Made by a program: the position numbers and the translations under genes
The notes under the pieces: generated by a model
The model's database searches: none
What the model was told of the DNA's origin: nothing
Seen by the model: the letters and a program-made list of their open reading frames with translations, nothing else
IMG/VR virus record: IMGVR_UViG_3300047470_000212
Coordinates: 43,081-107,080 of that record
Source of the DNA: a virus
DNA: 64,000 nt
Direction: 5' to 3' (one strand)
Part shown: piece after piece, positions 3,282-19,778 of the stretch
Numbering within the stretch: the first letter of the stretch is position 1
Layout of the letters: each line of letters starts with the position of its first letter

Positions 3282-3742
3282 TGCTCGGCCAGCCTCTTGA
3301 AGAGGTCGATGACGCGGGCGGTGAACTGGGTGCCCTTGATGGGCTTCTGGTGCGAGACCAGAACGCCCTCCTCGTGCGCGATGCGGACGATGCCCTCGAC
3401 CTGCTCGCGGGTGTAGAGGCGGCGACGGCCGCGCGGGTCGTCGTCCTTGCCCGGGGACTGGAAGGTGGACTTGGGAATGACTCCCTCCCTCTCCCACTTG
3501 CGGATGGTCACCGGCTGACGGCTCAGTGCCTTGGCGAGTTGACCGAGGGTGAAGAACTCAGTCTCCACACCGCCCACCGTGTACTTCCGGGGCTTGTGGT
3601 CCCAGTCGGCCGCCGACGTGGCGGCCTTGGTATGAAGCCCGTTGCGGTTGTGGTGGCGGACGATCGGCTTGGTGGACCCGGGGTAGAAGGCTTCCCCGAT
3701 CTCCGCGAAGTCCTGCTCGATGCTGGCGAGTGCAGTGCTCAT
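3278..3742 (-). CDS. MerR-type HTH DNA-binding protein
   Basis: FTLGQLAKALSRQPVTIRKWEREGVIP...RRLYTREQV. Confidence 0.75.
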   Translation of the reverse strand: MSTALASIEQDFAEIGEAFYPGSTKPIVRHHNRNGLHTKAATSAADWDHKPRKYTVGGVETEFFTLGQLAKALSRQPVTIRKWEREGVIPKSTFQSPGKDDDPRGRRRLYTREQVEGIVRIAHEEGVLVSHQKPIKGTQFTARVIDLFKRLAEQ

Positions 3743-4317: not shown

Positions 4318-4671
4318 TTACGGCTTCTTCGGATCCATTCGAACCGTGCGCCGGGCCGCGTAGGCGCGGGCGTCGTCGTCCAACTGATCCATGCGGACTT
4401 CAGTCTCGGCCACGTCCTGGTAGACGGTGACCACGCGGTGGTCGGCCGGGTCGACGATGGCGACGATGTCCCCTCGTACGTGGCGCCACTGTCCGGGGAC
4501 GCGGGCCGAGGGGTAGGTATGAAGCGGCTTGTCGGCCGCGAGGAGAACATCCTCGCTGGTCCAGCCCTTGGCGGCGGCCTGCTTCTGCGCGTGGTAGGTC
4601 AGCCGGTACTCCGGCGACTCGGTGGCGGGAGCGGTCCAGGTGATGCCCAGAGCTTCGGCGATGGTGGCCAT
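4318..4671 (-). CDS. DUF4258-like (RelE-like fold) protein
   Basis: LTYHAQKQAAAKGWTSEDV...IVAIVD...RVVTVY pattern; own promoter and RBS. Confidence 0.55.
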   Translation of the reverse strand: MATIAEALGITWTAPATESPEYRLTYHAQKQAAAKGWTSEDVLLAADKPLHTYPSARVPGQWRHVRGDIVAIVDPADHRVVTVYQDVAETEVRMDQLDDDARAYAARRTVRMDPKKP

Positions 4672-4974: not shown

Positions 4975-6618
4975 TTATGCCGCTTCCAGGCACTGCGTGA
5001 GGCTCACCAGGTCGTTCTCGATGCGGCCCTTGTCGTCCGCACCACGGCCGTCAGTGATGGCCGCTCCCACCCTGCGCTTGTGCGCGAGCATGGCGTACTT
5101 ACGGGGCTCGGTCGTGGCCTGGGTGATCGCGTTCAGCACGTAGATGTTCTTGAACAGGCTGGACGCCCGGTCGTGCCTCTTGTTGATCTGGTCCTGTTTA
5201 CCGCTGCTCCAGGCCAGGTCGTAGTTGATCAGGTAGTTCGCCATCCACAGGTCCGTGCCGAACGCTCCGGCGTGGCTGGACAGGAACACCCGGCAGCCCT
5301 CCTCCGTCTCGAACCGGGAGGCCGCGTACGCCTTGGCCCCGGCACTCATCCGACCCGTGTAGGTGACGGCCACACCCTCCGGCAGCCGGTCGGCCATCAG
5401 GTCGAGCATGTCGGGGTTGACCGAGAAGACGATGGCCTTGTTGCCAGGCACCGCGAGGATGTCCTCGATCGACTGCACCACGGCATCCAACTTCGGGGTC
5501 GCAGTGACGTCGTCCAGGAGCCCGGACTGCCACACCTCGTAGCAGTACTTCGAGCCCGGCCAGGTCTGCTTCTCCGCCCCGCCCTGCCGCGCCTGCTCGC
5601 TCTCCTCATACCGCTGCCCGGACGCGATGATCAGGTCCGGGTGGTTCAGCAGCATGTCGAGCGCCTGCATGCGAGACATGATCTTGCCCTGCTGGCTGTT
5701 CTCGTTCGGTGTCTCACCGCCGTGGTAGTGGGCGAACAGGTCGAAGTCCGAGGTGTTCGGGCCGAGGGCGTGCAGCTCAGCCAGCAGGTCGGCGGAGATG
5801 TGCTTGTACGCCTTGCGGGTCTTGGCGTCCAGGTTCACCGGGATGGTGCTCTCCTGGACCTTGGGCAGGTACGGCTTGACGTCCTCGTCCATGCGGGTCT
5901 TGCGCACCATGGCGTCGGCCAGTTTGGCGTGCAGGACAGGCAGGTTCTTGTAGTGCTGGACCCCGCCGAACTTGTTCCGCACGATGTAGGTCTTGTCGTA
6001 CAGGTCGAAGCGTCCCAGCACCTCGTCGTCGACCCACTGCATGATGCTGAACAACTCCTCCGGCCGCCCGTTCTCCACCGGGGTGCCGGTCAGTGCGTAG
6101 CGGTACGGCGCCGTCAGTCGCTTGATCTTCCGGGTGCGCTGCGCCTTGAAAGTCTTGATGGCGGTCGCCTCGTCCAGGACGATGCACTCCGGCTTGATCC
6201 TCCTGACGAAGTTCCAGTCGTTGACGACGTTCTCGTAGCCCATGATCACGTAGTCCGGCCGGTACGTCTTCACCTTGACGTACTGACCGGCCCGCTTCTT
6301 GGTGTCGCCGTCGATGAGGATGCAGTACTCCTCCGTCGGCACGGTGATCTCCTGGGTCTGCCCGTCCTCGCGCACCTTGATGACCCGCGTGGGAACGTCG
6401 GTGAGTTTGGCGATCTGTTTGGCCCACTGGTACTTGAGCGAGGCCGGGACCACGATGACGGCGGTCTCGACCTCGCTCTTCTCGATCAACTCCTCAATGG
6501 CGGCCAGGGCGATCGGTGTCTTGCCCAGGCCCATCTCGTAGGCGATGAGGAGGGAACCGCGCTCGACGGCGCGGTCCACTGCGGACTCCTGGTACGTGTG
6601 CAGGTCGATGGTCAGCAC
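4975..6618 (-). CDS. SNF2-family helicase
   Basis: EMGLGKT, LDEA, LTGTPVEN, C-terminal helicase motifs. Confidence 0.9.
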   Translation of the reverse strand: MLTIDLHTYQESAVDRAVERGSLLIAYEMGLGKTPIALAAIEELIEKSEVETAVIVVPASLKYQWAKQIAKLTDVPTRVIKVREDGQTQEITVPTEEYCILIDGDTKKRAGQYVKVKTYRPDYVIMGYENVVNDWNFVRRIKPECIVLDEATAIKTFKAQRTRKIKRLTAPYRYALTGTPVENGRPEELFSIMQWVDDEVLGRFDLYDKTYIVRNKFGGVQHYKNLPVLHAKLADAMVRKTRMDEDVKPYLPKVQESTIPVNLDAKTRKAYKHISADLLAELHALGPNTSDFDLFAHYHGGETPNENSQQGKIMSRMQALDMLLNHPDLIIASGQRYEESEQARQGGAEKQTWPGSKYCYEVWQSGLLDDVTATPKLDAVVQSIEDILAVPGNKAIVFSVNPDMLDLMADRLPEGVAVTYTGRMSAGAKAYAASRFETEEGCRVFLSSHAGAFGTDLWMANYLINYDLAWSSGKQDQINKRHDRASSLFKNIYVLNAITQATTEPRKYAMLAHKRRVGAAITDGRGADDKGRIENDLVSLTQCLEAA

Positions 6619-6905
6619 TGGGAGTACTGCCGATCGAACTGCCTGCTGGTGCGCGGGCGCCGGGCGAAGGGGACGCCGGGGGTGTAGTGCCCCTCCTGGA
6701 TGTGGTCCGGGTTGGCGCACATCCGTCGCGTGCACGCGCGGTGCTTCTGGCTGCCGCCTCCGGTGATGAAGGACAGCAGGCTCTGGCCCTTGTAGGTGGG
6801 CCGGGTCGCGGTGGACTGGAAGATCAGGCAGTCGGTGTCCGGGTCCGGCTGGACGCGGTCCCAGAAGGCCTGTCCCAGGTGTTCGTAGCCATCAGGCGGA
6901 AGCAT
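6612..6905 (-). CDS. Degenerate HNH-endonuclease-like zinc protein
   Basis: FWDRV..DCLIF...HRACTRRMCANPDHI; GGAGG RBS. Confidence 0.55.
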   Translation of the reverse strand: MLPPDGYEHLGQAFWDRVQPDPDTDCLIFQSTATRPTYKGQSLLSFITGGGSQKHRACTRRMCANPDHIQEGHYTPGVPFARRPRTSRQFDRQYSQC

Positions 6906-6951
6906 TGGCGGCCTCCGCCCAGGTATGAAGCCGGTTGTTCATGGGGTGCAT
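6892..6951 (-). CDS. 19-aa mini-ORF MHPMNNRLHTWAEAANASA carrying CTT-CAT-ACC in frame
   Basis: ATG overlaps primase stop (TGATG); ORF overlaps start of next gene. Confidence 0.5.
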   Translation of the reverse strand: MHPMNNRLHTWAEAANASA

Positions 6952-7919
6952 CAGAACCTCGCTATGACGGATGAGTAGGCGTTGCGGACGGCGTTCTTGA
7001 GGGCGTCGGCCCCCATGTCGCCGGGGTCCTTGCAGGGGGTGCCGGAGTAGTCCAGGAACTTCAGGGACAGGCCTCGGCCGGTCCACTCCTCGCGCAGCCG
7101 CTTGCACGTCTCGGCTCCTGCGGTGTCGTTGTCGAGCGCGATGATCACGGAGTCGAAGTGGTCCCGGATCAGGGACATCTGGGCGTCGGAGACTCCGGCG
7201 CCGAAGGAGGCGAGACCGGCCTTGAAACCGCAGGCCCGGAGCCGGACGACGTCCAGAGGAGACTCAACCAGGATGGCCGTGTCGTCCTCGTAGGTATGAA
7301 GTCCGAAGAGGGTCTTCGACTTGGCCATGCCCGGCGGCCGGTTGCGGAAATAGCGCTCGTTCTTCTCCTGCCAGCCCCACAGCATTCCCGTGTCGGGGTC
7401 GCGGACCGGGATGATCCACATCTCCCGCTCGGTGTCCCACAGCACGCCGCAGGCTTCCGCGTCCTCCGGCATGAAGAACCGCTCGGCGCAGGGGGTCAGC
7501 GGCGGGGTGACGTACAGGGCCAGGCTGGCCTCGTTGATCTGCTTGGTCGTGTCGACCGTCTTGGGGTCAGCCTTCTTCGCCAGGAACTTCTTGACCCGCT
7601 CGATCCCGCCCCGCTGCCGGACCCAGGCGACCGCGTCCCCGTACGGGAGGTCGAGCATGTCCTTTACGAGGACCACGAAAGGGCCCTGGTAGCGGCAGGA
7701 GAAGCAGTTGAAATACCCAGCGTCGTAGTTTATGGAAAAGGATGGGTGCTTGTCTTTCTTTCCGGTCCGCGCCTCATGCATCGGGCACGGCATGTGAATC
7801 TCGTCGCCGCTGACCTTGTAATCCAGGCCAATCTCATCCAGGCAGGCGGTGACGTTGCCGGGAACCGGAGTTCCTACTGCGTCCCAGCCGCGCGCCTTAG
7901 AACGAACCCTGGTAGCCAT
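6951..7919 (-). CDS. DNA primase (CHC2 zinc finger plus TOPRIM)
   Basis: CPMH...PSFS...CFSC; VESPLD, ALDNDTAG, KDPGD. Confidence 0.9.
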   Translation of the reverse strand: MATRVRSKARGWDAVGTPVPGNVTACLDEIGLDYKVSGDEIHMPCPMHEARTGKKDKHPSFSINYDAGYFNCFSCRYQGPFVVLVKDMLDLPYGDAVAWVRQRGGIERVKKFLAKKADPKTVDTTKQINEASLALYVTPPLTPCAERFFMPEDAEACGVLWDTEREMWIIPVRDPDTGMLWGWQEKNERYFRNRPPGMAKSKTLFGLHTYEDDTAILVESPLDVVRLRACGFKAGLASFGAGVSDAQMSLIRDHFDSVIIALDNDTAGAETCKRLREEWTGRGLSLKFLDYSGTPCKDPGDMGADALKNAVRNAYSSVIARF

Positions 7920-9162
7920 CAGTGTTCTCCTCCTCCATGGCGAAAGGATCCTCGTTCAGTTCCTCGAACTTTCCCGTCTCCCAATCCCACTGGCAGTAGG
8001 TCTCCAGAGGCGGGCAGTTACGGGCCAGGACGACCTTGATCTTGTTGATGTTCGAGTCATCCGTGGACTCGACACCGAGAATGACGTCGGAGTCCTGGGC
8101 GAAGGAGGACGAATATCCGATGGAGTCGGAGGTAATGCCCTTCTTCTTGTTCATCTTCCATTCCAGGACCTGCGTGGAAATGACGATCGGGAGTTGCAGG
8201 TTCTTCGCCATGCGCTTGAATCCTCGGGTGAGGTTGGTAAGCGCCTGGCTGGATCCCTGAGCCTCGCCGAGTTCGTCCTGCATCATGTAGATGCCGTCCA
8301 CGAATACGATCGTCGGCCGAATGGCATCGATCTTCGACTGCACACCGGTAAGCGTGGTCGCATTCATGGAGTCCGAGGAAAGGAAGAACGAGGGCATAGC
8401 CTCAAGTTCCCGAAGGGCCCTTTCGAGTTTGTCCCACTCGGTCTTCTTGAGCGTTCCGTTCCGCAGCCGGGCATGGGAAATCCCCGCGCGGATTGCGTCG
8501 AAGCGTTCCTCCTGCTCCTCGTTGCTCATCTCGAAGCCGATGAACAGCGGGCGCTCACCGTGCAGGTGGGCAGCCATGGCGGCCAGCAGAAGCAGCGTCG
8601 ACTTACCAGCCTTCGGAGGGCCGACGAAGGTGACCAACTGCTCCTTCTGGAGGCCCTGGGTGGCCCTGTCGATCGTGTTGAAGCCGGTGGGGATACCCCG
8701 GAGCCCGTCGGGCAGGTCCTTGAGCGTGAGGTACCGCGCAAGGCGTTCCTGGCCCGTCTCCGTCAGGTCGGTGTCGCGGGCGTTGGGTACCGCCGAGGCG
8801 ATGTTGGCCAGCGTGCGGGCCAACGCCTCCATCGCGGCGGTGGCGTTGCCCTCTTCGTGTGCGTCGACCGAGTCGGCCAGGCCCTGCTCCAGCAGGGCCA
8901 AAGTATGAAGTTCTCGCAGCCGGTCGGTCAGCACTTCCATGCTGTCCTCGACCTTGACGAACCGGTACGTGGGGAAGTCGGTCTTGATCGTGGTGAGGCT
9001 CGGGACCTCGCCGTAGTTCCCCTTGTGCCGCAGGATCGCCTTGAAGACGGACTTGTTGTCCGGGTCTCCGAAGAAGTCGGGGGTGATGCCCGCGTCCGCG
9101 ACGACAGCCAGGTCCTTGTCCTGGATGACGCGGGACACGAGCAAGCGCTCGAAGTCCGCCAC
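7897..9162 (-). CDS. DnaB-like replicative helicase
   Basis: GIPTGF, GPPKAGKS, FEMS, IVFVDG, QDSD. Confidence 0.92.
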   Translation of the reverse strand: MADFERLLVSRVIQDKDLAVVADAGITPDFFGDPDNKSVFKAILRHKGNYGEVPSLTTIKTDFPTYRFVKVEDSMEVLTDRLRELHTLALLEQGLADSVDAHEEGNATAAMEALARTLANIASAVPNARDTDLTETGQERLARYLTLKDLPDGLRGIPTGFNTIDRATQGLQKEQLVTFVGPPKAGKSTLLLLAAMAAHLHGERPLFIGFEMSNEEQEERFDAIRAGISHARLRNGTLKKTEWDKLERALRELEAMPSFFLSSDSMNATTLTGVQSKIDAIRPTIVFVDGIYMMQDELGEAQGSSQALTNLTRGFKRMAKNLQLPIVISTQVLEWKMNKKKGITSDSIGYSSSFAQDSDVILGVESTDDSNINKIKVVLARNCPPLETYCQWDWETGKFEELNEDPFAMEEENTDGYQGSF

Positions 9163-9605
9163 TACATTGCTCCGATCAGGGTGGTGGGTACGGCCGGGAG
9201 CATGCGTCCCTTGCTGCCGTAGATCAGGTGGTTCTCGTTGTCGAAGACGGCCGCTACGTCAGGCATGTGGGCCAGGCGGCGGGCCAGCTTCTTGGGGTCC
9301 TCGCACCACACGCGGCCGATGGGCAGGCCCTCGATGTCCAGGCGCCATTCCAGGGCCTCGGCGAACTCGTCACCCAGGTACGTGATGACGTCGACCGAGT
9401 AGCGGTAGCGCCAGACCGTGTCCCAGATGACGTGGGCCAGCGGCTCGTTGATCTCGTAGGCCTTCACAGCGCGCTTCCACTGGTGCGCCCGGCGGGCCAC
9501 TGCTTCACCAGCTCGGGCTCGCGCGGTGGGCAGGTTGCCCAGCAGTCCTTCGAAGACCAGGACCATGCGCGGGGAGACCTCGTTGCTTATGTCCCCGCCC
9601 TGCAT
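9162..9605 (-). CDS. Hypothetical protein
   Basis: Start and stop overlap both neighbours. Confidence 0.65.
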   Translation of the reverse strand: MQGGDISNEVSPRMVLVFEGLLGNLPTARARAGEAVARRAHQWKRAVKAYEINEPLAHVIWDTVWRYRYSVDVITYLGDEFAEALEWRLDIEGLPIGRVWCEDPKKLARRLAHMPDVAAVFDNENHLIYGSKGRMLPAVPTTLIGAM

Positions 9606-9850
9606 CAGGCTCGCTCCGCTTCGGCGCGGAGCCAGATATGAAGTCGTCCGTGCCGGAGTTCTGTGATCACACGGTGCTCGCGCACGCGGAATCCGAGGGC
9701 GGCAGCCTTGTAGACCGCGAGGAAGAGCAGCCGCTTGGCGGTCGCACGCTGCTCGGGGAACCGTCCGGTGATCGTCGCCGGGATCTCGTCCTTGTAGAGA
9801 ACCGACAAGACCTCGTCCTCGAAGGGGAGGACCATCTGCTCATGCGGCAC
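9605..9850 (-). CDS. Hypothetical protein
   Basis: GTG start with GGAGGA RBS; TGATG overlap downstream. Confidence 0.6.
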   Translation of the reverse strand: MPHEQMVLPFEDEVLSVLYKDEIPATITGRFPEQRATAKRLLFLAVYKAAALGFRVREHRVITELRHGRLHIWLRAEAERA

Positions 9851-10499
9851 GGCGATCTCCTCCGACGACGGTGATGTGGGTGAAGGCGCCCTGGATGAAG
9901 GAGCCCATCGAGGGGTTGTATGTGTCCCCCCACTTGCTCGGCGGGACGTTGGAGGTGACGAGGGTCGGCCGGGCCTCGCGGTGTCGAAGGCGCAGCAGGT
10001 CGTCCAGCAGGCCTTCGGCGTAGCCGGACTTGGTCTTGTGCTCCTTGCCGACGTCGTCGAGGAGGAGGACGGGCGCCTTCTCGGCCGCGACGATCTTGTC
10101 CGTGATCTCCCACCAGCGGGCAACGGCCTCGGGCTCGTGCCGGTCCTGGAGACCCATCCGCTCGATGGACAACTTCACGTAGTCCGAGTAGGCCAGCCAC
10201 GCCACGGGCAGGCGGCGGCCGAAGTAGACCTCCAGCAGCGTGGACGTGGCGAGCGTGGTCTTGCCTGTGCCGGGCGGCCCTACGACCAGCAGCCCCTTGC
10301 CGATGGTGCTCCAGTCGGCCGGGTACTCGTTCAGGGGGCGCTTGTCCGTGACGTAGTGGTCCCGGAGGTTGTCCACGAACTCCTGGCAGACGGCCTTGTG
10401 CGGCGAGTCCGCCAACGTATGAAGACGCAGGTGCTTGTAGTGCGCCGGGATGCCGTACTCCTTGAGCCGCAAGGCGTGGACCCGGGGGTCAGTCGCCAT
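9840..10499 (-). CDS. DnaC/IstB-like ATPase (helicase loader)
   Basis: GPPGTGKT, LLLDDVGKE, TLVTSN; between initiator and DnaB. Confidence 0.88.
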   Translation of the reverse strand: MATDPRVHALRLKEYGIPAHYKHLRLHTLADSPHKAVCQEFVDNLRDHYVTDKRPLNEYPADWSTIGKGLLVVGPPGTGKTTLATSTLLEVYFGRRLPVAWLAYSDYVKLSIERMGLQDRHEPEAVARWWEITDKIVAAEKAPVLLLDDVGKEHKTKSGYAEGLLDDLLRLRHREARPTLVTSNVPPSKWGDTYNPSMGSFIQGAFTHITVVGGDRRAA

Positions 10500-10583
10500 G
10501 TGGATACCTCCTGGTGGTGGTGGGTTCAACGTTCAGGAGGCTACCACAGTTATCGCTTCCTGGATACGTCTTCGGAACGCGTA

Positions 10584-10613
10584 AGGGGCGGGCTGCCGAA
10601 GCAACCCGCCCCT
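10584..10613. terminator. Hairpin, likely terminator
   Basis: AGGGGCGGG...CCCGCCCCT after initiator stop. Confidence 0.55.
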
Positions 10614-10622
10614 GTGGGTCGG

Positions 10623-11690
10623 TCAGGACCAGTAGTCCTCGTTGAACCTGTTGTTCTCCACCTCGTCGACCTTGTCAGCCTTGCCCAGTCGCTGGGTCAG
10701 CAGCCCACGGGCGGCAAGGAAGTCCTTCCAGGCGACCACGTTGTCCGAGCGCTGCCAGGAGGTGGACCAGTAGGTGATGATCATCTGGCGTACCTCTTCG
10801 CGCCCAAGGCCCTGGGCCATCCACCGGCCGAAGGTCCCAGTCAGGGCTCCGAGGTTGGTGGAGCCGGGGACCGGGTGACCTACTTCCCCGGCCCGGTGGT
10901 CGAAGAATTCCGCCAGTTCCTCCGAAGGCCTCTTGGAGCGCTTCTTAGGAGTTCGCCGGGCCGGAGGGGCCAGGTCGCCATCCGAAGCCGGGAGACGGGC
11001 GGCCAGGGACTCTCCTGGATCACCGTCACCGATGGCCTGGGATACCACGTAGGCCGGATCGAGTTCCCGCTCGGCCTGCTCCTGCTCCAAGGCCTCCTGC
11101 TTCCGGGACTTCCTCTTGCCGCCAGGACCCCGGAGGGGGCGTACCGCATTCCAGCCCTTGGCTCCCGGCCTGGGAGTCTCCTCGGCATCGTAGAGATCCG
11201 ACCGCGCCGACTGGCGCGGTGGAAGAGACGTAGTCTCTTCTATTTCTCTAGTAGTACTAGTTAGGTAGTTAGGGGTTGGGTGCACTCCAGTGCAGGGTGC
11301 AATATTTGCAGGGTCCTCTGGAGTTGTTATGTCACAACTACCTTCGTCGACCCCTGCATTATTTGCAGGTGTAGTTCTTGCACCCTTCTCGGGCTCCGGA
11401 ATCCACTCTTCGATGGGGAGAATCCGGCGCACAGCGGACTTGTACCGCAGGGACTCCAGAGGCCTCTCCTCGTCGGAAACGGACTCGATGATGCGACGCT
11501 CCTCCAGGTCCCGCAGGACGTTGTAGGTCTGCCGCTCCTTGATGTTGGCCTTGCTGGCGATGGTTGGTACTGAAAGCCAGCACATCCGGAAGTCGTCATC
11601 CGCTGCGTCGGCCATGGCCAGCAGGACCAGTCGGGATGCAAGTCGGGTGTGCTTGCTCCGCATCACCTCGCCCATGATGATTACGCTCAC
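10623..11690 (-). CDS. Replication initiator with N-terminal winged HTH
   Basis: RLVLLAMADAAD...CWLSVPTIASKANIKERQTYNVLRDLEE; precedes DnaC/DnaB. Confidence 0.75.
   Translation of the reverse strand: MSVIIMGEVMRSKHTRLASRLVLLAMADAADDDFRMCWLSVPTIASKANIKERQTYNVLRDLEERRIIESVSDEERPLESLRYKSAVRRILPIEEWIPEPEKGARTTPANNAGVDEGSCDITTPEDPANIAPCTGVHPTPNYLTSTTREIEETTSLPPRQSARSDLYDAEETPRPGAKGWNAVRPLRGPGGKRKSRKQEALEQEQAERELDPAYVVSQAIGDGDPGESLAARLPASDGDLAPPARRTPKKRSKRPSEELAEFFDHRAGEVGHPVPGSTNLGALTGTFGRWMAQGLGREEVRQMIITYWSTSWQRSDNVVAWKDFLAARGLLTQRLGKADKVDEVENNRFNEDYWS
11230..11385. promoter_or_regulatory. Putative replication origin inside the initiator gene
   Basis: Repeated TGCA-based units (TGCAATATTTGCAGG, TGCATTATTTGCAGG) next to an AT-rich tract. 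Confidence 0.55.
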
Positions 11691-11734
11691 TCGGCGACTC
11701 CGAGGAAGCGATAAGTATGAAGCGATAGCGTCAT
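11687..11734 (-). CDS. 15-aa leader ORF MTLSLHTYRFLGVAE carrying CTT-CAT-ACT in frame
   Basis: Stop overlaps initiator start (GTGA). Confidence 0.55.
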   Translation of the reverse strand: MTLSLHTYRFLGVAE

Positions 11735-11787
11735 GGTAATGTGCTCTCTATCTCGGGGTTTGTGGTGGGCCTCGGGGTGTGGTGGGC

Positions 11788-11843
11788 AAAGGCCCCCGGC
11801 AGTGGCTTGAAGGTCTTGAACCTCGCCAGCGCCGGGGGCCTTT
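11788..11843. terminator. Hairpin terminator
   Basis: AAAGGCCCCCGGC...GCCGGGGGCCTTT. Confidence 0.65.
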
Positions 11844-11850
11844 GCGTTAC

Positions 11851-13080
11851 TCACTCCGAGTCGAGTTCGAGGCCCTTCTCCTCGATCTCCGCCCGGGTCA
11901 ACTGCACGACGGTCTGTCCGGCCGGGATGCGGCCACGGCCGCGACGGGTGTAGTTGCCCTCGTCGTCGACCAGGTAGGCGAACGTCTTGTTCTCGTCACG
12001 CGGGCGACCACGACGCCGACGGGGAGAGGACTGCTCCTCCTGGTCACCCTCCGGCTCCTGGTCACCCTCCGGCTCCTCGGCCGCCTCCGGCGCCTTCTGC
12101 TTCTGCTCGCCGGTCTCCGGCAGCGTATGAAGCGCCTTGCGCAGCAGTTCGGTCAGCGGTCGCTCGCGCACGTCGGCCTGGTTGATGATCGCGTTGCGCT
12201 CGTCCTCCAGACGGAAGGAGTTGTAGGCACCCTCCAAAGCGGCGCGTATCAGGAGCAGGTCGATCTCGGCGTCCGGGACCGGCTTGTCGGTCTCCTTCTG
12301 CTGCGCCTTGTGCTGCGCGCGGGCGATCGTCTCCTGCAAGGACTCCTTCTCCTCCTCGACAGGCGCCTCTTCCTCGACCGGCTCGGCGGCCTTGCGACCA
12401 CGACGGCGGGGCTCCGGCTTCGGCTCCTCCTCCGGCTTGTCCTCGGTCAGCGGCTCCTCTTCCGGCTCGGCCGTCTCCGGCTCGGCGCGACGGCCACGGC
12501 GACCGCGACGGCGGGGCTCCTCCGGCTCGGGCTCCGGCTCGGGCTCCGGCTCGGGCTCCGGCTCCGCCTCGGGCTCGGCGTGGGTCTCGGCAGCGAAGGA
12601 GATGTCGTCGAGTCCGGCCGTCAGGTCCTTGGCCGTGATCCCAGCGGCCTCGGCCGCGTCCAGGAGGAGTTCGGCCTCCTCGCTGCCCTCGGAACCCCAC
12701 AGCAGGATCACGTGGGCGTCGCCCTGACTGTCGGCGTTCTTGAGGAGTTCGACGATCCCGGCGGTGACGTTGGCAGTCTTCACGACCTCCTCGGCGTCCT
12801 TGAGGATCTTGTCGACGGCCCGGCTCTTCTCGCCGTCGGTGACCGCGACGAACGGGATGTCGGCCCACTCGGACCACTCCAGGACGGTCTCCAGTCCGTC
12901 GGACAGGTGCTTCTTGGTGATCGGGAGGATGAGCGTGATCTCGCGCTCGGAGGGCTCGGGGTAGCCGTCCTTGTCTTCCTCGCCGAGGCCCACGAAGTCG
13001 TTCAGGAGGGCCTTGACGTTGTCCAGGTCGGTGGCGGCGTCGCCAGCGAAGGCGAGTGCGATGGGCTGAGTGCTGCTCAA
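11851..13080 (-). CDS. Acidic low-complexity protein with Arg-rich/AT-hook-like motifs
   Basis: TTG start with GGAG RBS; (EP)n tract; RRRRGRPR and RRGRGRIP near C-terminus. Confidence 0.7.
   Translation of the reverse strand: MSSTQPIALAFAGDAATDLDNVKALLNDFVGLGEEDKDGYPEPSEREITLILPITKKHLSDGLETVLEWSEWADIPFVAVTDGEKSRAVDKILKDAEEVVKTANVTAGIVELLKNADSQGDAHVILLWGSEGSEEAELLLDAAEAAGITAKDLTAGLDDISFAAETHAEPEAEPEPEPEPEPEPEPEEPRRRGRRGRRAEPETAEPEEEPLTEDKPEEEPKPEPRRRGRKAAEPVEEEAPVEEEKESLQETIARAQHKAQQKETDKPVPDAEIDLLLIRAALEGAYNSFRLEDERNAIINQADVRERPLTELLRKALHTLPETGEQKQKAPEAAEEPEGDQEPEGDQEEQSSPRRRRGRPRDENKTFAYLVDDEGNYTRRGRGRIPAGQTVVQLTRAEIEEKGLELDSE
12520..12577. repeat. 12-bp tandem repeat encoding (EP)n
   Basis: CTCCGGCTCGGG units. 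Confidence 0.75.
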
Positions 13081-13201
13081 GTCTGCTCCCGATGTGGTGT
13101 GTTTGCCGCCCTTCCGGCGACAGGAGAAGACGTTACCGGTTACGGCTTCTAAAAGCAAGAAACCCCCGCTTCGCAAGCGAGGGTTTCAAAGCGTTTGACA
13201 A

Positions 13202-13486
13202 CTAGGGCAGGTCAGGAACCCTGCGACCGGTGGCCGGATGCCTACGAGGAAGCCGCAGCGCCGGGGCCACCGAACCACCCCGGACAGGGATGTGCAGCAG
13301 GGCCACCACTCCGGCCGCAGCCGCAGCAGTCAGCCAGGGGACGGGAACACGCTGCGCCTCGTAGGCCAGGCCGACAACCACGAGGGGCTGGAGCCAGGCC
13401 GGGAGGGTGAACGGGAGCACGACGACCAGCCACTCCCACGCGGTGAACGTGGCGAATGCGATCAGCAGGAGCCGGAACCAGTCCAT
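13202..13486 (-). CDS. Small membrane protein (lysis region)
   Basis: Three hydrophobic segments. Confidence 0.65.
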   Translation of the reverse strand: MDWFRLLLIAFATFTAWEWLVVVLPFTLPAWLQPLVVVGLAYEAQRVPVPWLTAAAAAGVVALLHIPVRGGSVAPALRLPRRHPATGRRVPDLP

Positions 13487-13489
13487 AGG

Positions 13490-14020
13490 TCAGACCGACC
13501 TCGGGCCGAGGGGAGACTGCGGGAGCGCCTGGGTGGTGATGGTCTCCTGGGCGACCAGGGCTGGCTTGACCGCACGCTGGAGCGCAGCGTGCAGGGCGAC
13601 GGCGATCTGCTCGATGGCCTCGGGACTCAGGGTGGCGCCGCTGACCTGCGCCGGGGGCTCGACTGCCTCCGTCTCCTCGACGTACTTGGCCAAGGTGGCG
13701 GGCGATATATGAAGCCGGTTCTCGGTCTCGGTGATCAGGGCGTTCTGGAGCCAGCCGAACCACGCGTACTTCTTGAGCAGCGAGTGGTAGAAGGCGGTGC
13801 CGGTCACCCAGGCGAGGAAGGACGCGACGACGGCCGGGGCCCAGTAGAAGTGCTGGGGGTGGGCCTGGTAGACGGCCCAGAAGCCCGTGGCGACCGCGAG
13901 GACGGCATGCGCGGCACCCTTGACCGTGGCGTTGGTCGACGGCCGGGTGAACAGCGCGACGATGGCTGGCAGGGCCAGGCCGACGACGAGGGAAGCCGCG
14001 TCGGCGTAGTTGGTGAGCAT
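13490..14020 (-). CDS. Holin-like membrane protein
   Basis: Three N-terminal TM segments, at end of tail operon. Confidence 0.6.
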   Translation of the reverse strand: MLTNYADAASLVVGLALPAIVALFTRPSTNATVKGAAHAVLAVATGFWAVYQAHPQHFYWAPAVVASFLAWVTGTAFYHSLLKKYAWFGWLQNALITETENRLHISPATLAKYVEETEAVEPPAQVSGATLSPEAIEQIAVALHAALQRAVKPALVAQETITTQALPQSPLGPRSV

Positions 14021-14043
14021 GCGTGTCCTTTACGGGTTCGTGG

Positions 14044-15258
14044 TTACTGGGTCGGGAGTACGGCATATTGGGGAACCGCTGAAGTGATTCCCAAAGGAGT
14101 ATTCTCGTCGAGCAACGTGCGGATGAGGTAACTCCGCTCGGTGTAGTTCTCGTAGTAGTAGGAGCGGGTCAGGTTCGCGGTGCCGCTGGCTTCCCAGAGG
14201 TAGTCGGCGCCCATTGAGCCGTCGAAGTACGGGCGTACCGCTGCGCCTTCTTCGACCAGGACTCCGTCGAACCAGAAGATGCTCGACTGCCCGGCGGCCA
14301 TGGTGGTCCGATCAACGAACAGCCCCAAGGTCGTCGTTGATGCGCTCACGTCGAAGGTGACCCACACTGTGCGCCAGCGCTTGTTGCTCGGGTCCGGCTT
14401 GGCGCTGCGGAAGGAGACGCGGTTGACCAGGGTTGCGTTGTTCGACGCGTACGGAATGACATCCCCGCAGCCCTGCGCGACGGCGACACGTACGCTCGCC
14501 GTGTAGCGGCGCCCCGGGATGAGCCCGTTCAGCGTCCAGTGGCTTCCGCCGTTGAGGGTTCCGGCAGATGGCACTGTGACCACGCACGAGGAGGTGCCTC
14601 GCCAACACAGGGAGTCCTGCGCCACGGTGGCGCTATTGAATCCGGTGACCCCTGTAATCCCACTCTCGAAGTTTGGGTTGGCGGCGTAGTTCAACCGTGT
14701 TGGCTTGATGACGACGCGCAGTTCCCTTGCGTTCTGGTAGGCGCTCGGTCCGGCCGAGCCCAGGGACAGCGGCTCGAACTGCACGGCGTCCAGGATCTGG
14801 TGTTTGTTCGCTGACATGCTGGCGAACTTGAAGCCGACGGAGGCGTACGTTGCCCGCTTCCAGGCGTACCCACCGCCGGATACGGGGTAGTCGACCGGGC
14901 CGGTGAACGCGGCGTACGGGCGGCTGTAGGAGCCTGCTACTCCTGACTTGAGCGTGCCGGAGGTGATGCCCATCCATGCCTGCGCCGGGTCGACACCTTG
15001 GTAGGGGTAGTGGGAGAAGTCCTTGAAGGCAGCCGCCGGGGCCTTCACTCCGGCCGAGAGCGCACCGTCCACGGAGAACTGTCCCGCCAGCGGCGCCAGT
15101 GGCTTGCCGCGTGGCACCTTGATGGCCAGGCCACCGTTGATGGTGACCAGGCCGAACAGGTCCGGGGAGTACGTGGTGAACTTCCGCGCGACGATGGTGC
15201 CGCTGACGGAGAACTGGTTGAAGTACTCCGTGGTGTTGCTGAAGGTCAGGTTCGGCAT
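14044..15258 (-). CDS. Tail/baseplate protein with carbohydrate-binding-like domain
   Basis: NYAANPNFES...FWFDGVLVEEG..PYFDG. Confidence 0.7.
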   Translation of the reverse strand: MPNLTFSNTTEYFNQFSVSGTIVARKFTTYSPDLFGLVTINGGLAIKVPRGKPLAPLAGQFSVDGALSAGVKAPAAAFKDFSHYPYQGVDPAQAWMGITSGTLKSGVAGSYSRPYAAFTGPVDYPVSGGGYAWKRATYASVGFKFASMSANKHQILDAVQFEPLSLGSAGPSAYQNARELRVVIKPTRLNYAANPNFESGITGVTGFNSATVAQDSLCWRGTSSCVVTVPSAGTLNGGSHWTLNGLIPGRRYTASVRVAVAQGCGDVIPYASNNATLVNRVSFRSAKPDPSNKRWRTVWVTFDVSASTTTLGLFVDRTTMAAGQSSIFWFDGVLVEEGAAVRPYFDGSMGADYLWEASGTANLTRSYYYENYTERSYLIRTLLDENTPLGITSAVPQYAVLPTQ

Positions 15259-17240
15259 CAGGTGACCGCCATTCCCACGCGGGTGGCAGTGCTGAGCGTC
15301 GAGTTGGTAGTCGTGAGCACCTGAGATCCGTTCCGGTAGACCGTGATGTTGCTCCCGGAGTAGGCCACCGTGATGCGGTCGCCGTCCGAGAACGCCGTGG
15401 AGTAGTTGAGGGTCGTGGTCGCCACGCCCGCCTGGATGAGGTGGAGTGCCGTCCTCCCGGCCCGCCAGTAGTTGCTGGAGTCCTGGAGCCGGAAGACCAC
15501 ACCCTGCTTGAGGGTGTTGCCGGGGTTGGTCAGGAGGGTCCCCGCCACCGTGCCGTCAGCGTGGCCCGGGATCGTGGCGATCGACGCCGTTGCACCAACT
15601 GGGTACGCGCAGCCGCCCCCGTAGCCGCCGGAGGTCCACTGCCCAAGGGTCTCGGCCCAGGACGCGGCCCCGATGTCCGAGGTGCGGGTCGTCCAGTTCA
15701 CCCATCCCTGGGTGAAGGAGTCGAGCACGTTGTACGCGGGCAGGGCGTCGCTGTACAGCGAGGTGATCAGAGTTCCGTGGTTGTCGTAGTACTCGACGAA
15801 CGGGTACACGTTCACCTGCTCGCCGGAGTACGCCTGCGCGTAGCCGGACAGGCACATCTGCACGCGCTCGTCGTATCCCAGCGGCGTCCACTGTGCGTTC
15901 GCGGTAGGTGTGTCCGGCGGGGCGACGTTGATGCTCGCGGTGAGCGCCTGGTAGACGCGGCCGTGGAAGATGACGGAGTCGCCGGGCTGGTAGTAGGTGT
16001 CGTCGTCCCAGGACTGCCAGGTGTACGGCAGCGGGACGCCGAACAGGACCGGCTGCTGCGGGTCCATCGTCGCCTGCCCGGAGACGCGGCCGACGGAGCG
16101 CACGCCCATGGTGGCGACCGACCCACCGGAGTTGGTGTTACGCACCCACAGCGCGTTGCCCGCCTTGTCATCAGGGTTGGTTGGGTTCTGCACGCCGATG
16201 CCCACCAGGACGCCGTTGGTGCCCGGGGTGACGCCTGCGGTGAAGGAGATCTCTTCCCATCCGGCGACGTGTCCGTTGGCGTCGACCAGCGTGGAGTCTG
16301 TGCCGTACTGAACCACCGTCCAGTAGGCATTGGAGGAGTTGGTACCCGTAGGGATCTGGGAGGCACCGTAGGCGCCGCTGCTGCCCGCCTGGTAGAGGTA
16401 GGAGCCGAACTCAGCCTTGTCTCCGGCCGCATAGTTCACGCTCGCGTCCCACTGCGGGAAGGACGGGTGGTCGAAGTCCGCCTGGTCGTCGGAGAGCATG
16501 AGGTTGTAGCCGATGGACAGGTCGGCGTCGTAGCCGGTCGTCTCGGAGATGATGGACCTGATCTGCTCCAGGGTGCCCTTCTGGCGGCCGAGGGTCGCAG
16601 CGTCACGCACCCGCTGCCGGAAGAGGTAGGCCGGAGTGGACGCCTCGTACTCGATACCGAACTGCGTAGCCAACTGGGAGATGTTGTCGAAGCGGGTGCG
16701 CATCGCATCGTTGGTGTACCGGTTGGAGTCGTAGTACGACCTCACCATGTCGAAGCCGAACCCGAAGATCGACAGGAACGGATGCAGGAACGGGTTCAAG
16801 GTGTTGGAGTCGTCGGTGACGTTGTTGCCCGGCGCGATGTCGACCTTGTAGTGCTCGGGAACGAGCCCGTACAGGAGGTCGGTGTACCCGTTGTCCTTCG
16901 GCATGAGGCAGGACACTGTGCCCGCGCGGGACCACTGGCCGGACGCCTTGATGAAGATCGTGTAGTACAGCCAGTGCCCCCCGACCACGCCCCTGTCGAC
17001 GAACGACGTCGACTTGGATGTCTGGTCGAGCAGGACCTCTCCGTCGTTCTCGTTGACGGCCCAGCCGAACCTGTTGCGCAGTAGGCGCAGGTTGGTCCAC
17101 GAACCGGCTGGGGACGCCCAGTCGAGCAGCACGGTGGAGTAGTCGGCGGGCGTGGCTGTGAACGGGCTGACGTCGAACTCGGCCCGGATGTCCGTGCCGT
17201 ACTTCGAGAGCCCGTATTTGGAGACGCCGTATGTACCCAA
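15258..17240 (-). CDS. Baseplate (P2 gpI-like) protein fused to small carbohydrate-binding repeats
   Basis: RQKGTLEQIR motif; two W....Y..GD.V...G..Y.A repeats. Confidence 0.7.
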   Translation of the reverse strand: MGTYGVSKYGLSKYGTDIRAEFDVSPFTATPADYSTVLLDWASPAGSWTNLRLLRNRFGWAVNENDGEVLLDQTSKSTSFVDRGVVGGHWLYYTIFIKASGQWSRAGTVSCLMPKDNGYTDLLYGLVPEHYKVDIAPGNNVTDDSNTLNPFLHPFLSIFGFGFDMVRSYYDSNRYTNDAMRTRFDNISQLATQFGIEYEASTPAYLFRQRVRDAATLGRQKGTLEQIRSIISETTGYDADLSIGYNLMLSDDQADFDHPSFPQWDASVNYAAGDKAEFGSYLYQAGSSGAYGASQIPTGTNSSNAYWTVVQYGTDSTLVDANGHVAGWEEISFTAGVTPGTNGVLVGIGVQNPTNPDDKAGNALWVRNTNSGGSVATMGVRSVGRVSGQATMDPQQPVLFGVPLPYTWQSWDDDTYYQPGDSVIFHGRVYQALTASINVAPPDTPTANAQWTPLGYDERVQMCLSGYAQAYSGEQVNVYPFVEYYDNHGTLITSLYSDALPAYNVLDSFTQGWVNWTTRTSDIGAASWAETLGQWTSGGYGGGCAYPVGATASIATIPGHADGTVAGTLLTNPGNTLKQGVVFRLQDSSNYWRAGRTALHLIQAGVATTTLNYSTAFSDGDRITVAYSGSNITVYRNGSQVLTTTNSTLSTATRVGMAVT

Positions 17241-17246
17241 GGCGGA

Positions 17247-17894
17247 TCACATCTCCCGGAGCATGGAGACGGAGAAATTGATCTCGTCCAGGGTGTAGGT
17301 CTTGCCACCGAAGGGGTTGCGCTCGATCATCTCGATCTTCTTGCCCGCGCTCACGGGGCCCTGCCAGAACGCCGTCGTGTGGCTGTAGCCGTTGAAGTTG
17401 TGCGTGACGGTGTGGCAGACGACGCGGCTACCGCCGACGGCGATGCCCAGCCAGCGCTCGGGGTCTTCGAGCAGGATCGTGCCTCGGCAGTACGCGGAGG
17501 CTAGCCACCAGCCGGTGCGGTTGGCGGTGACCGAGGAGCCGTTGAAGATGCCCTCGGGGTCGTTGGTCGCCGACGGCCTGGGGAACGGGATCGGCACGCG
17601 CTCGGCAGCGGCGGAGATGTGCGTCTTCACAGGCTTGAAGGTGTGCGAGGTCTTGGTCATGTAGCAGACGGGTATGCCCTTGCCGCGCTGGATGGAGTCG
17701 AGACGATCGGCGACCGAGGCCCACTTGTTCGTCTTCATCTTCAGCGTGGTGTCCTGGTGCGGGTTGATGCCCAGGGTCTGCTGCATGGCCAGCACTTCGT
17801 CTTGCAGGTTGTTCACGTGGGAGGCGTCGATATCCTCGACGAGGTTCTTGTGCGTCGTGAACGTCTTGTACTGGTGTGGGTAGACAGCGGCCAT
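17247..17894 (-). CDS. Tail fibre/baseplate-associated protein
   Basis: IDASHVNNLQDEV; start overlaps baseplate J stop (TAATG). Confidence 0.65.
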   Translation of the reverse strand: MAAVYPHQYKTFTTHKNLVEDIDASHVNNLQDEVLAMQQTLGINPHQDTTLKMKTNKWASVADRLDSIQRGKGIPVCYMTKTSHTFKPVKTHISAAAERVPIPFPRPSATNDPEGIFNGSSVTANRTGWWLASAYCRGTILLEDPERWLGIAVGGSRVVCHTVTHNFNGYSHTTAFWQGPVSAGKKIEMIERNPFGGKTYTLDEINFSVSMLREM

Positions 17895-19366
17895 TAGCCG
17901 ATCCCTCCGGTCATGGTGATGTTGGAGATGTTTCCGACCTTCGGGATCTCCCAGGCGCGGAAGACAACGTCGGCTGTGCCGGTCTGCGCGGCGTCCGCGC
18001 GGGCGATCATGGGGATGTCGACGTAGCGCACGCCGTCCACCGCGAGCAGGGCCTTGTAGAAGTCGCTGAGGGTCATCCGCATACCGAAGTCGACGTTGGC
18101 GAATCCGAGCATGTTCTTCAGGGCCTGCTGCACGTCGTAGAGGACCGAGGCCCTGGAGTAGCGGGGCCAGCACTCGACGGTGATGGGCTTGGTGGACGAG
18201 CCGACGTTCACGCTGACCACGGATGGGCCTGCCACGGTGACTGTGGAGCCCGCCAGGGCCTTGGCCTGGAGGGTGGCCTGCACGTTGTTCAGGGTCGTTG
18301 TGTTGGGCTGTCCGCCGTCCGCTCCGATGACGTACACGGAGACGCTGGTGTAGGTCGAGGCGACGGCGTTGGCCCGGACGATGCCGGGAAGGGTCAGTGC
18401 CAGGTCGGAGAAGTCCCGGAGGGTGACGCAGCGGTCCTGACTGCGGAAGATTCGCGGCGCGTTGGCCCTGATCTGATCGTTGGTCTCGGGGTCTGCACCG
18501 CCGGACATGGCCGAGGAGATCGCCGTGCCGCTGGAGTTCTGGGCGATGGTGACGCCGGGCAGGTTCGAGGAGGCGAGGGCGTTGACCACGCCCGCGTTGA
18601 CGTTTCCGATCGTGCCGCCACCGACGCGGTAGGTCGCGTAGATGGTCAACTGACTGTTGGGGATGGCGCCGTTGATGTTGTCGCCGAAGCGGATCCACGC
18701 TGCGCCGGAGTCGTCCAGGAACGTCGTGAACACCTTGTCTTCGGGGTCGGCGTCCACCAGGTAGTTGATGTAGGTCCACTCGGTCGCGGCGTTGACGTCG
18801 TCCACGAAGACCTGCACGGTGCCGTTGATGACGGGCACGTCCGGCAGCCGGAACTCCTGCACGGGCAGGCCCGAGCTGGTGCCAACGTTGACCTGGCTGC
18901 GGGTGACTCCCTGGGTGACCGGGACTGTGGCCTTGCCACCGTTGACCGGCACCAGGATGTCGGAGTCGGTCTCGTAGGTGACCGGGCTGTCGATGGTGTC
19001 GATGTAGTCGGTGACGACCTGAGTGCCCGCAGGCACCAGGACAGCCGGTCCGGGGTTGGACGTCTGGAAGGTGACCGTGCCAGTGGCCGGGACACCGTTG
19101 CTCGGGGTGTAGCCGAGCAGGTCCGCAATCTGGAGCAGGGACAGGCGCTGGGTCGCGGTCGGCAGGAAGGCCTCCTGCTGGAGCCGGTCACCGTAGTAGG
19201 AGAGGCTGTCCCCGAGGTAGGAGAACAGCTCGACCATGAGCACGCCGAAGTCGCCCTCCGAGCCAGGTACCCACTGCGGGAAGGCTCGGGCGGCGTAGTC
19301 CAGCAGGGAGGCCTTGAAGCCCTCGTAATCCCGACTGGTGTAGTCGATAGCCGGTACGTCAGCCAC
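17894..19366 (-). CDS. Baseplate J-like wedge protein
   Basis: IDYTSRDYE, DFGVLMVELFSY, GGADPET, RCVTLRDF. Confidence 0.92.
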   Translation of the reverse strand: MADVPAIDYTSRDYEGFKASLLDYAARAFPQWVPGSEGDFGVLMVELFSYLGDSLSYYGDRLQQEAFLPTATQRLSLLQIADLLGYTPSNGVPATGTVTFQTSNPGPAVLVPAGTQVVTDYIDTIDSPVTYETDSDILVPVNGGKATVPVTQGVTRSQVNVGTSSGLPVQEFRLPDVPVINGTVQVFVDDVNAATEWTYINYLVDADPEDKVFTTFLDDSGAAWIRFGDNINGAIPNSQLTIYATYRVGGGTIGNVNAGVVNALASSNLPGVTIAQNSSGTAISSAMSGGADPETNDQIRANAPRIFRSQDRCVTLRDFSDLALTLPGIVRANAVASTYTSVSVYVIGADGGQPNTTTLNNVQATLQAKALAGSTVTVAGPSVVSVNVGSSTKPITVECWPRYSRASVLYDVQQALKNMLGFANVDFGMRMTLSDFYKALLAVDGVRYVDIPMIARADAAQTGTADVVFRAWEIPKVGNISNITMTGGIG

Positions 19367-19778
19367 TGATGACCTCGCTTACGGTGCCGCCCACACGCAC
19401 CACAGCGGTGTTGGTCTGGAGCGACAGGCTGGATGGGGACGCCCCGGCCTCGCGGCGCATGTAGTCGACCTCGATACGGGCGAGCGACATCTGGGAGGCA
19501 TCAGGGATAGGGGTGGCCCTCTGGAGGAGCACACCGGGCTCGTACCGGTCGAATGCAGAGGTCACGGCACGGCTGATTTCCTGCGCGACAAAGGTCGCGT
19601 CAGGGTCGAAAAGCAGATCGGCCACCGGGACTCCATAGTCCGGGAGCATGACCCGCTCCCCCGGCTGCGTGCCGACGAGCGCATTGACATGCTGGGCGAT
19701 CTGCCTGTCGGGATTCGTCTCGACGGCGATTTTCCCGTCGGACGCAAGTCGAAATGGAACTGCAATCTCGGTAGGCAT
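19359..19778 (-). CDS. gp25/GPW baseplate wedge protein
   Basis: TQPGERVMLPDYG, YEP. Confidence 0.9.
   Translation of the reverse strand: MPTEIAVPFRLASDGKIAVETNPDRQIAQHVNALVGTQPGERVMLPDYGVPVADLLFDPDATFVAQEISRAVTSAFDRYEPGVLLQRATPIPDASQMSLARIEVDYMRREAGASPSSLSLQTNTAVVRVGGTVSEVISG

Follow-up and report, generated by a model that had tools for sequence, protein, structure and literature searches.

Translational coupling through a sequestered ribosome-binding site (RBS), as from the MS2 coat gene to replicase or lysis, is one of the described systems closest to an element that we analysed in an uncultivated actinophage: a short open reading frame (mini-ORF) that bridges the primase gene and the gene after it, and that carries the nine-base word CTT CAT ACC in frame just ahead of a hairpin. 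The element lies in a 64,000-nt stretch, here called the window, which spans bases 43081–107080 of the 107,080-bp IMG/VR virus record IMGVR_UViG_3300047470_000212 (genome G000). As in coupled genes, stop and start codons overlap (TGATG, GTGA, TAATG), and GGAGG and ATG lie inside a hairpin that an upstream ribosome must melt. Here, in contrast, the coupler is a separate mini-ORF with an invariant nine-nucleotide in-frame word, and some 30 further copies of the word sit mid-gene with nothing to couple.

Leader-peptide attenuators such as hisL and trpL likewise have a short ORF with control codons (here His or Asn) just ahead of a hairpin whose fate is decided by ribosome position. They differ from the present case, in which a single control codon stands in a fixed three-codon context, in tens of copies per genome and mostly in long genes; unlike in attenuators, no alternative antiterminator/terminator pair and no U-tract were found at the primase junction. 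Selenocysteine insertion sequence (SECIS) elements and frameshift stimulators share the plan of an in-frame codon with a coding hairpin a short, fixed distance behind it. Frameshift sites have the structure 5–9 nt past the shift site, and in most of the 48 copies of the word the stem begins ~5 nt past the CAU codon, the equivalent of a 5-nt spacer past the A-site codon. Yet the codon here is a sense codon, not a stop codon, and no slippery X XXY YYZ heptamer is present.

Cluster A stoperators and Cluster K start-associated sequences resemble the word in being short, asymmetric, present in tens of copies and oriented with transcription, and in having lineage variants that imply a co-evolving reader. 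Those sequences are mostly intergenic DNA operators or lie just upstream of starts, and they are not known to follow a reading-frame rule or to adjoin a hairpin. The orientation rule holds here, no repressor was identified, and the frame lock and hairpin are foreign to stoperators. In bldA/TTA control of Streptomyces, expression also hinges on decoding an uncommon codon in a high-GC actinobacterial setting, and the phages compared here carry tRNA-Asn and, in some cases, tRNA-His. The present signal, however, comprises nine fixed bases plus structure rather than a lone codon, and the tRNA-His is missing from two complete genomes that have the word.

Compared with these families, the combination found here is unique: a nucleotide-fixed triplet of sense codons in strict frame, a coding hairpin, tens of mostly genic copies and a concerted single-base switch between lineages. 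A literature text search with the nine-base word and general terms returned no description of such a signal. We read the mini-ORF as a translated bridge and the word with its hairpin as a signal that would be read during translation, as a pause or a gate, and we give this reading a probability of roughly 45%.

Results

The word is fixed in both nucleotides and frame

Nearly every gene of this genome (64.6% GC, with direct terminal repeats) lies on the minus strand. The 8-mer CTTCATAC occurs 22 times in the window, where 0.5 are expected, and 40 times in the genome (<1 expected). Of these copies, 39 are on the minus (sense) strand; the remaining one is on the plus strand, in a gene of that strand. 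No other sense-strand 8-mer of the genome is as frequent, although the word is AT-rich and the background GC-rich. Within genes defined by a codon-usage gene caller, CTTCATA stands in frame 0 at 40 of 40 sites, as CTT CAT A-- (Leu-His-Thr, LHT). CTT-CAT-ACC is the commonest codon triple (29 occurrences; the next reaches 12), all in-frame CTT-CAT pairs of the genome fall in the word, and LHT in usual codons occurs three times, about the chance number. Because usual-codon LHT stays at chance while every CTT-CAT pair belongs to the word, nucleotides and frame are both fixed. Information content is at background just outside the nine bases, with a weak preference for G at −1 and +3. A motif acting at the peptide level was rejected on the same count, and also because relatives with a variant word (CTT AAT ACC; see below) retain LHT in their primases in usual codons.

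The frame lock recurs across relatives. Among 309 distinct contexts from 38 sources, the only departures were cases of mini-ORFs or overlaps and three antisense chance matches at gene starts. As background we used the related genome G001, where the CAT word is not under selection. Near-matches to the word there were distributed over the three frames as 16:37:5 at distance 2 and 126:315:92 at distance 3; the favoured frame is xxC TTC ATx CCx, not frame 0. All exact CAT-word copies, lineage-specific ones included, are in frame 0, and since background near-matches favour another frame, the lock on the CAT word is functional. Codon constraint alone would be enough to explain the frame of the AAT word, whose other frames hold TAA or TTA-ATA, and is ruled out for the CAT word by the near-match counts.

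The word stands close to gene starts more often than expected and, with weaker support, close to gene ends. Of the 40 genic sites of G000, 9 fall in the 20 codons next to a start, where 4.1 are expected (P = 0.018), and 7 in the 20 codons next to a stop, where 3.7 are expected (P = 0.07); in G005, G007 and G001, P was 0.001–0.03 for starts and 0.03–0.22 for stops. Mean spacing is ~2.2 kb and very uneven. Sites are densest in the replication module (~1 copy per kb), and the word is almost absent from an 18-kb stretch of small, poorly conserved genes outside the window (G000 bases 5157–23334), which may represent a different expression class or a recent acquisition.

A mini-ORF bridges the primase junction

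On the minus strand, the mini-ORF (Table 1) reads ATG CAC CCC ATG AAC AAC CGG CTT CAT ACC TGG ... TGA, with GAGG 5 nt ahead of its ATG. As the original prediction had it, the ATG overlaps the primase TGA (TGATG, at 6951), CGG CTT CAT ACC TGG is in frame, and the 19-codon ORF covers both the GGAGG (6916–6912) and the ATG (6905–6903) of the downstream gene; its own stop falls 11 nt past that ATG. With GGAGG and ATG held in a 10-bp hairpin, this arrangement looks in sequence as RBS-sequestering coupling would be expected to look. The downstream 97-aa gene is conserved in relatives at 79–90% identity; neither Pfam nor PHROGs nor tblastn against phages supports the label 'HNH-like' first given to it.

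The start-to-start offset between the mini-ORF and the downstream gene is 46 nt, the downstream frame being +1. CUU is a classic +1 slip codon (prfB, Ty1), and the earlier suggestion that a +1 slip at CUU-C would enter the downstream frame is correct for this copy as far as the frame goes; that suggestion already stated that the other two mini-ORFs do not show the relation. The slip itself did not stand up: the corresponding offset is +2 in the clade with the AAT word, and third-position GC content (GC3) continues in frame 0 on either side of all 40 genic copies. No conserved open alternative frame was found among these junctions, the A-site codon after a +1 slip would be the rare AUA, and re-pairing of CUU to UUC would be possible with the CAT word and poor for the UUA of the AAT word.

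Comparison with relatives revealed four states of this junction. In group A (the window, L001 and L003), a 16–19-codon ORF is present: L003 has the same ORF, and L001 has a 16-codon form with its own AGGAGA and no overlap with the primase stop. In group B the position is held by a real gene of 65–67 aa that carries the word and hairpin at codons 6–10 (MPYNKRRLHTCGKRRF..., L005:1641-1838 (+), with equivalents in L002, L006–L012, L014, L016 and L034); its matches to zinc ribbons are faint. The AAT clade (group C) has a 13–14-codon ORF beginning MTRLNTCP, with AGGAGA and either ATG or GTG as its start codon; its stop and the downstream ATG overlap (ATGA). The hairpin is CCCCC/GGGGG, and substitutions all fall in the loop. 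In group D the element is absent and the downstream gene directly follows the primase. The same architecture thus recurs at the primase junction in two lineages of different sequence, one with CTT AAT ACC, and the four states together indicate that the architecture is conserved rather than the peptide. In groups A and C, the mini-ORF resembles a remnant of the 65–67-aa gene, reduced to its first codons, with start, word and hairpin retained.

Intergenic copies elsewhere lie in similar ORFs

Intergenic copies of the word number four in G000, each in a bridging mini-ORF of 10–28 codons whose ATG lies 2–7 codons ahead of the word. For an arbitrary intergenic position, the chance of an in-frame, stop-free ATG within nine codons upstream is 7.7%; all four copies have one within seven. 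One mini-ORF, MRLHTYGGPC followed by a stop, lies outside the window. The three intergenic copies within it (the primase copy and those at 11722 and 26729) were all claimed to be in frame in short ORFs, with RLHTW in two of the three, and they are. The mini-ORF stops overlap or adjoin the next start (TTGA, GTGA, TGATG), and equivalent mini-ORFs occur at the same four loci in the other complete genomes, some of which have more. From this recurring architecture of RBS, start 2–7 codons ahead of the word, hairpin, and stop on or near the next start, the mini-ORFs appear to be coupled and translated, as first proposed.

A hairpin of variable sequence follows the word

The 36 nt downstream of the 48 CTTCATA sites fold with a mean of −13.1 kcal/mol, whereas 2,841 in-frame genic positions drawn at random have a mean of −8.8 kcal/mol (Mann–Whitney p = 4e-11); the 36 nt upstream of the word fold no better than controls. 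Mean shuffle z-scores of the downstream segments are −1.28 in G000 and −1.10 in G001, one genome of each word type, compared with ~0 in GC-matched controls (p about 1e-7). The commonest stem start is 2 nt past the word. Stem sequences differ at every copy and are themselves coding; in the initiator leader, stems differ by lineage with the pairing retained (CTCGG/CCGAG, CCTGG/CCAGG, GGCGG/CCGCC).

The hairpin at the primase junction has a predicted stability of −18 to −20 kcal/mol. A single hairpin is predicted here, and a scan of positions 6500–7300 for intrinsic terminators, which misses actinobacterial terminators that lack a U-tract, gave no terminator-like site and no U-tract.

The word switches between CAT and AAT in concert

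We compared 39 loci from a primase search of IMG/VR together with L115, a locus from a metagenome scan. All phages with at least 75% primase identity carry the word system. When the comparison was extended to cultured and distant phages, only L115 (82% identical) had it, and the more distant BRock, LuckySocke, L036 and 79 low-GC metagenome loci did not. Two distant low-GC metagenome phages have strongly strand-specific repeated words of their own, unrelated to CTT CAT ACC: in L164, CAAGGAAC occurs 19 times as part of a longer GGTAGCCAAGGAAC-like unit, and in L173, ACCTACGGT occurs 12 times and AACTTCAG 14 times.

Most lineages are CAT-type, with 34–47 sense CTTCATA per complete genome and no CTTAATA. 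One clade, supported at 99/100 in the primase tree, is AAT-type, with 29–41 CTTAATA and only 0–2 stray CTTCATA. The CAT lineages form an unresolved polytomy, and the tree gives no direction for the switch; genome-wide, Group D CAT phages are as distant as the AAT clade. About 22 of the 48 G000 sites are CTTAATAcc at the identical codon in G001, which replaces His by Asn in conserved proteins, for example in ILTPDRL(H/N)TVVER and RPAGARL(H/N)TFGGR. The primase peptide LFGLHTY is written with CTT CAT ACC in all CAT-type phages and with TTG or CTG CAC ACC in AAT-type phages. At several codons, word and stronger hairpin were gained together by substitution at unchanged length, and one gene has its AAT-type and CAT-type sites 11 codons apart. 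The codon choice in the primase, the ~22 His/Asn swaps and the joint gain of word and hairpin argue that selection acts on nucleotides. An in-frame insertion element is ruled out, since new sites arise by substitution at constant length.

Candidate readers

We looked for genes whose presence or absence follows word type, and only an 88-aa gene and a HicA-like gene remained. The former (window 55744–56010, minus strand) encodes a Thr-rich protein with no family match in Pfam or PHROGs; it is present in five of five complete CAT-type genomes and in none of the AAT type, in which its two neighbours are adjacent. The HicA-like gene is 65–85% identical among five CAT-type genomes, and in the AAT type it is 38% identical with a 14-aa insert. 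Its 80-aa product matches PF07927 (HicA_toxin) at 17.8 bits, below the gathering cut-off of 27, and five of seven orthologues match, with a best E of 5e-5. An AlphaFold2 model has an alpha-beta-beta-beta-alpha topology at a predicted local distance difference test (pLDDT) score of 68. Its structural matches are weak (Z 3.2–4.9), with HicA chains at ranks 3, 5, 7 and 29 and 1whz, which we take to be a HicA-like structure, at rank 4; Foldseek E-values are all >0.2. GGNH is invariant among the orthologues, and its His is a candidate catalytic residue. The HicA-like protein is no more than a candidate reader of the word, and its correlation with word type comes from a single switch event.

A tRNA-His(GUG) gene of 85–86 nt (window 58657–58742, minus strand) has G-1 and C73 and a long, type-II-like variable arm, and compensatory changes between G000 and G005 maintain its acceptor and variable-arm stems. 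G000, G005 and G006 have this gene, and G007, G008 and every AAT-type genome lack it; because G007 and G008 are complete CAT-type genomes, we rejected it as a required dedicated decoder. AAT-type genomes have an ordinary tRNA-Asn only and no special one. No dedicated tRNA or factor for the word was found, no search aimed at a SelB-like factor having been made. A link to queuosine or 7-deazaguanine was also rejected: a Tgt-like gene occurs in the distant relative BRock, and none in this genome.

Genomic setting

The primase is 40–43% identical over its full length to annotated primases of Streptomyces phages LuckySocke, Alone3, GiJojo and BRock (tblastn), and it has a DnaB-like helicase upstream and an SNF2-family helicase downstream of it. 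Between tRNA genes, a c-di-AMP (ydaO-type) riboswitch (RF00379, 71.9 bits; window 59915–60049, minus strand) lies directly upstream of a gene for an NlpC/P60 cell-wall hydrolase (59423–59929, minus strand) and is kept in G001 and G004 (57–60 bits); carried by a phage and controlling a lysis-type enzyme, such a riboswitch suggests that the host is an actinobacterium. A 121-aa protein (60652–61017, minus strand) has the DNA-binding domain of Lsr2 (PF23359, E 1.6e-6), and is thus a phage version of an actinobacterial protein that binds AT-rich DNA; the AAT-type clade has a more divergent form (58% versus 84%). Outside the window, a 130-aa protein (L066:7223-7615 (-), G000 bases 7223–7615) has a phage ProQ C-terminal-like domain (PF24203, E 5.6e-17) and is a possible RNA chaperone; it is present in three of four other CAT-type genomes and in none of the AAT type, and hence is not universal.

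Table 1 Positions of the primase-junction element, the other mini-ORFs, further word copies and associated genes in the window
Feature	Position	Strand	Remark
DnaG-type primase	6951–7919	−	322 aa; own word copy at 7293–7301
Mini-ORF at primase junction	6892–6951	−	19 codons + stop, MHPMNNRLHTWAEAANASA; ATG shares A of primase TGA (TGATG)
Nine-base word CTT CAT ACC	6922–6930	−	in frame within mini-ORF
Hairpin at this copy	6894–6920	−	10-bp stem (6920–6911 with 6903–6894), 7-nt loop; begins 1–2 nt past word
GGAGG RBS of downstream gene	6912–6916	−	within 5' arm of hairpin
Downstream 97-aa gene	6612–6905	−	ATG in hairpin loop and 3' arm
Second window mini-ORF	11687–11734	−	MTLSLHTYRFLGVAE + stop; stop overlaps next GTG (GTGA); kept in all relatives, hairpin stems differ
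Third window mini-ORF	26661–26747	−	MAFTDRLHTWGPG... + stop; TAATG at start, TGATG at end
Word copy	2102–2110	−	frame 0, codon 14 of 659-aa gene
Word copy	2890–2898	−	frame 0
Word copy	3629–3637	−	frame 0
Word copy	4516–4524	−	frame 0
Word copy in primase (LFGLHTY)	7293–7301	−	AAT-type relatives: same peptide, usual codons
Word copy, ACT form	8902–8910	−	frame 0, DnaB-like helicase
Word copy, ATC form	9635–9643	−	12 codons ahead of stop overlapping next ATG
Word copy, ACG form	10416–10424	−	frame 0, DnaC-like loader
Word copy	12124–12132	−	frame 0
Word copy, ATA form	13706–13714	−	frame 0
Word copy	23988–23996	−	frame 0, 1452-aa gene
Word copy	26903–26911	−	frame 0
Word copy	30736–30744	−	codon 5
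Word copy, ATC form	34855–34863	−	G001 site 11 codons further down same gene
Word copy	38178–38186	−	codon 3
Sole plus-strand word copy	45123–45131	+	in frame in plus-strand gene; orthologous CTTAATACC in G001
Word copy	48087–48095	−	in conserved ORF missed by gene caller
Word copy, ATC form	50334–50342	−	last three codons of HicA-like gene
HicA-like protein, 80 aa	50331–50573	−	candidate trans-acting reader; sequence tracks word type; family assignment weak
Word copy	55231–55239	−	codon 9
Word copy	55548–55556	−	frame 0; relatives have alleles with and without word + hairpin
Word copy, ATC form	56214–56222	−	13 codons ahead of stop
Word copy	56989–56997	−	frame 0
Word copy	57520–57528	−	frame 0
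Word copy	63229–63237	−	frame 0; G001 and G005 without word at this codon

Discussion

The strict frame, the mini-ORFs that would deliver ribosomes to the word, the hairpin 5 nt past the middle codon and the enrichment near gene starts lead us to read word and hairpin as a signal read in translation. The signal would consist of CUU CAU ACC, a gap of ~2 nt and a stable hairpin of variable sequence, and it would work only when ribosomes read the word in frame. When CUU occupies the P site and CAU (or AAU) the A site, a distance of ~12 nt would separate the first P-site base from the first pair of the hairpin, which would stand 5 nt beyond the A-site codon. The mRNA entrance of the ribosome, with its helicase site, lies ~12 nt from the first P-site nucleotide, and a hairpin held there could impose a programmed elongation pause or act as a gate. 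At the primase junction, a ribosome arriving from the primase through TGATG would read the mini-ORF, melt the hairpin and terminate just past the downstream start. Because GGAGG and ATG are held in the hairpin, the 97-aa gene would be translated mainly after such a ribosome arrives, and would in this way be coupled to translation of the primase.

The existence of what appears to be a translation-linked signal system is well supported by the statistics and the comparison. The ORF, the frame lock, the hairpins as a class, the conserved positions, the all-or-none change between CAU and AAU and the RBS enclosed in the hairpin are what the sequences show; translation of the mini-ORF, pausing of ribosomes and a benefit of the ~30 mid-gene copies are what we infer from them.

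Several observations weigh against a translational pause or gate. Taken singly, the hairpin at the primase junction does not reach significance (z −0.75), although the class of 48 does. Sense and antisense hairpins are equally stable, so folding cannot tell RNA from DNA. Among Leu codons, CUU is not the rarest, and no Thr codon is commoner than ACC; 'rare codons' alone therefore fail to explain conservation of all nine nucleotides. Related contigs L004, L039, L032 and L033 have no element at the primase junction, which makes this particular copy dispensable. Each genome keeps to one word type, CAU or AAU, and none mixes the two; a pure pause model fails to explain this, and it suggests a trans-acting reader with single-base specificity. 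Finally, the phage is known from metagenomes only.

The all-or-none change of C to A at word position 4, which fits one trans-acting reader, also favours a second explanation, in which word and hairpin form the binding or cleavage site of a sequence-specific RNA-binding protein or endoribonuclease of the phage, for which the HicA-like protein is the candidate. The outcome would be phage mRNA processing, timed decay or repression, and ribosomes would only expose or protect the site. The density of sites in the replication module would suit an RNase or RNA-binding protein, and the HicA-like gene diverges by word type even though Group D CAT phages are no closer to the others than the AAT clade is. 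HicA proteins have a double-stranded-RNA-binding-like fold, which would suit a hairpin adjoining a single-stranded word, and the invariant GGNH retains the candidate catalytic His. However, known HicA toxins act independently of translation, and such action leaves the frame lock and the mini-ORFs unexplained. The HicA assignment is itself weak, given the Pfam score below cut-off, a best E of 5e-5 in five of seven orthologues, a pLDDT of 68 and Z of 4.5–4.9; its correlation with word type reflects one switch event, and the 88-aa gene tracks word type too. We regard this explanation as unlikely.

A third possibility, which we find quite improbable, is a one-strand signal in DNA, with hairpin and 9-mer serving to prime the lagging strand, to direct site-specific nicking as T5-like phages do, or to give Chi-like protection from a host nuclease, and with the frame as a by-product. 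The word keeps to a single strand over 107 kb, hairpins are equally stable on both strands, the phage encodes its own primase and helicases, and the mean spacing of ~2.2 kb would be compatible with such a role, although that mean conceals the 18-kb gap and the ~1-kb spacing in replication genes. A DNA signal would not be expected to hold frame in ~300 copies, contrary to background accessibility, nor to have its intergenic copies always in RBS-bearing ORFs that bridge two genes; and the sole opposite-strand copy sits, conserved, in an opposite-strand gene.

Recoding, either by a +1 frameshift at CUU-C or by special decoding of CAU by the long-armed tRNA-His as an analogue of selenocysteine and SECIS, draws on the geometry of codon and downstream hairpin, on the +1 relation at this copy and on the compensated arm of that tRNA, but is largely refuted by comparison, and scarcely credible, in view of the +2 offset in the AAT clade, the unbroken frame-0 GC3, the rare AUA in the A site, the CAT-type genomes that lack the tRNA and the AAT-type genomes that have no special tRNA-Asn.

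Reading word and hairpin as a signal decoded in translation can be extended, more tentatively, to the clade. Some 45 in-frame words with their hairpins would then punctuate the message at junctions, at starts and mid-gene, read by the ribosome together with a phage specificity factor, and the whole set could be retargeted by one base change, CAU to AAU, with His replaced by Asn in some twenty conserved proteins.

For annotation, the four 'intergenic' gaps of this phage would be small translated ORFs. If ribosomes do read the word, it would constitute a genome-wide regulatory layer inside coding sequence, with enough force to hold uncommon codons in place, to impose amino-acid replacements on conserved proteins of replication and structure, and to keep dedicated mini-ORFs in the genome. 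It would also offer a natural case of a whole regulon recoded in concert, from His to Asn at ~22 orthologous codons, and a defined, portable module of nine nucleotides and a hairpin for studies of elongation pausing and coupling in high-GC actinobacteria.

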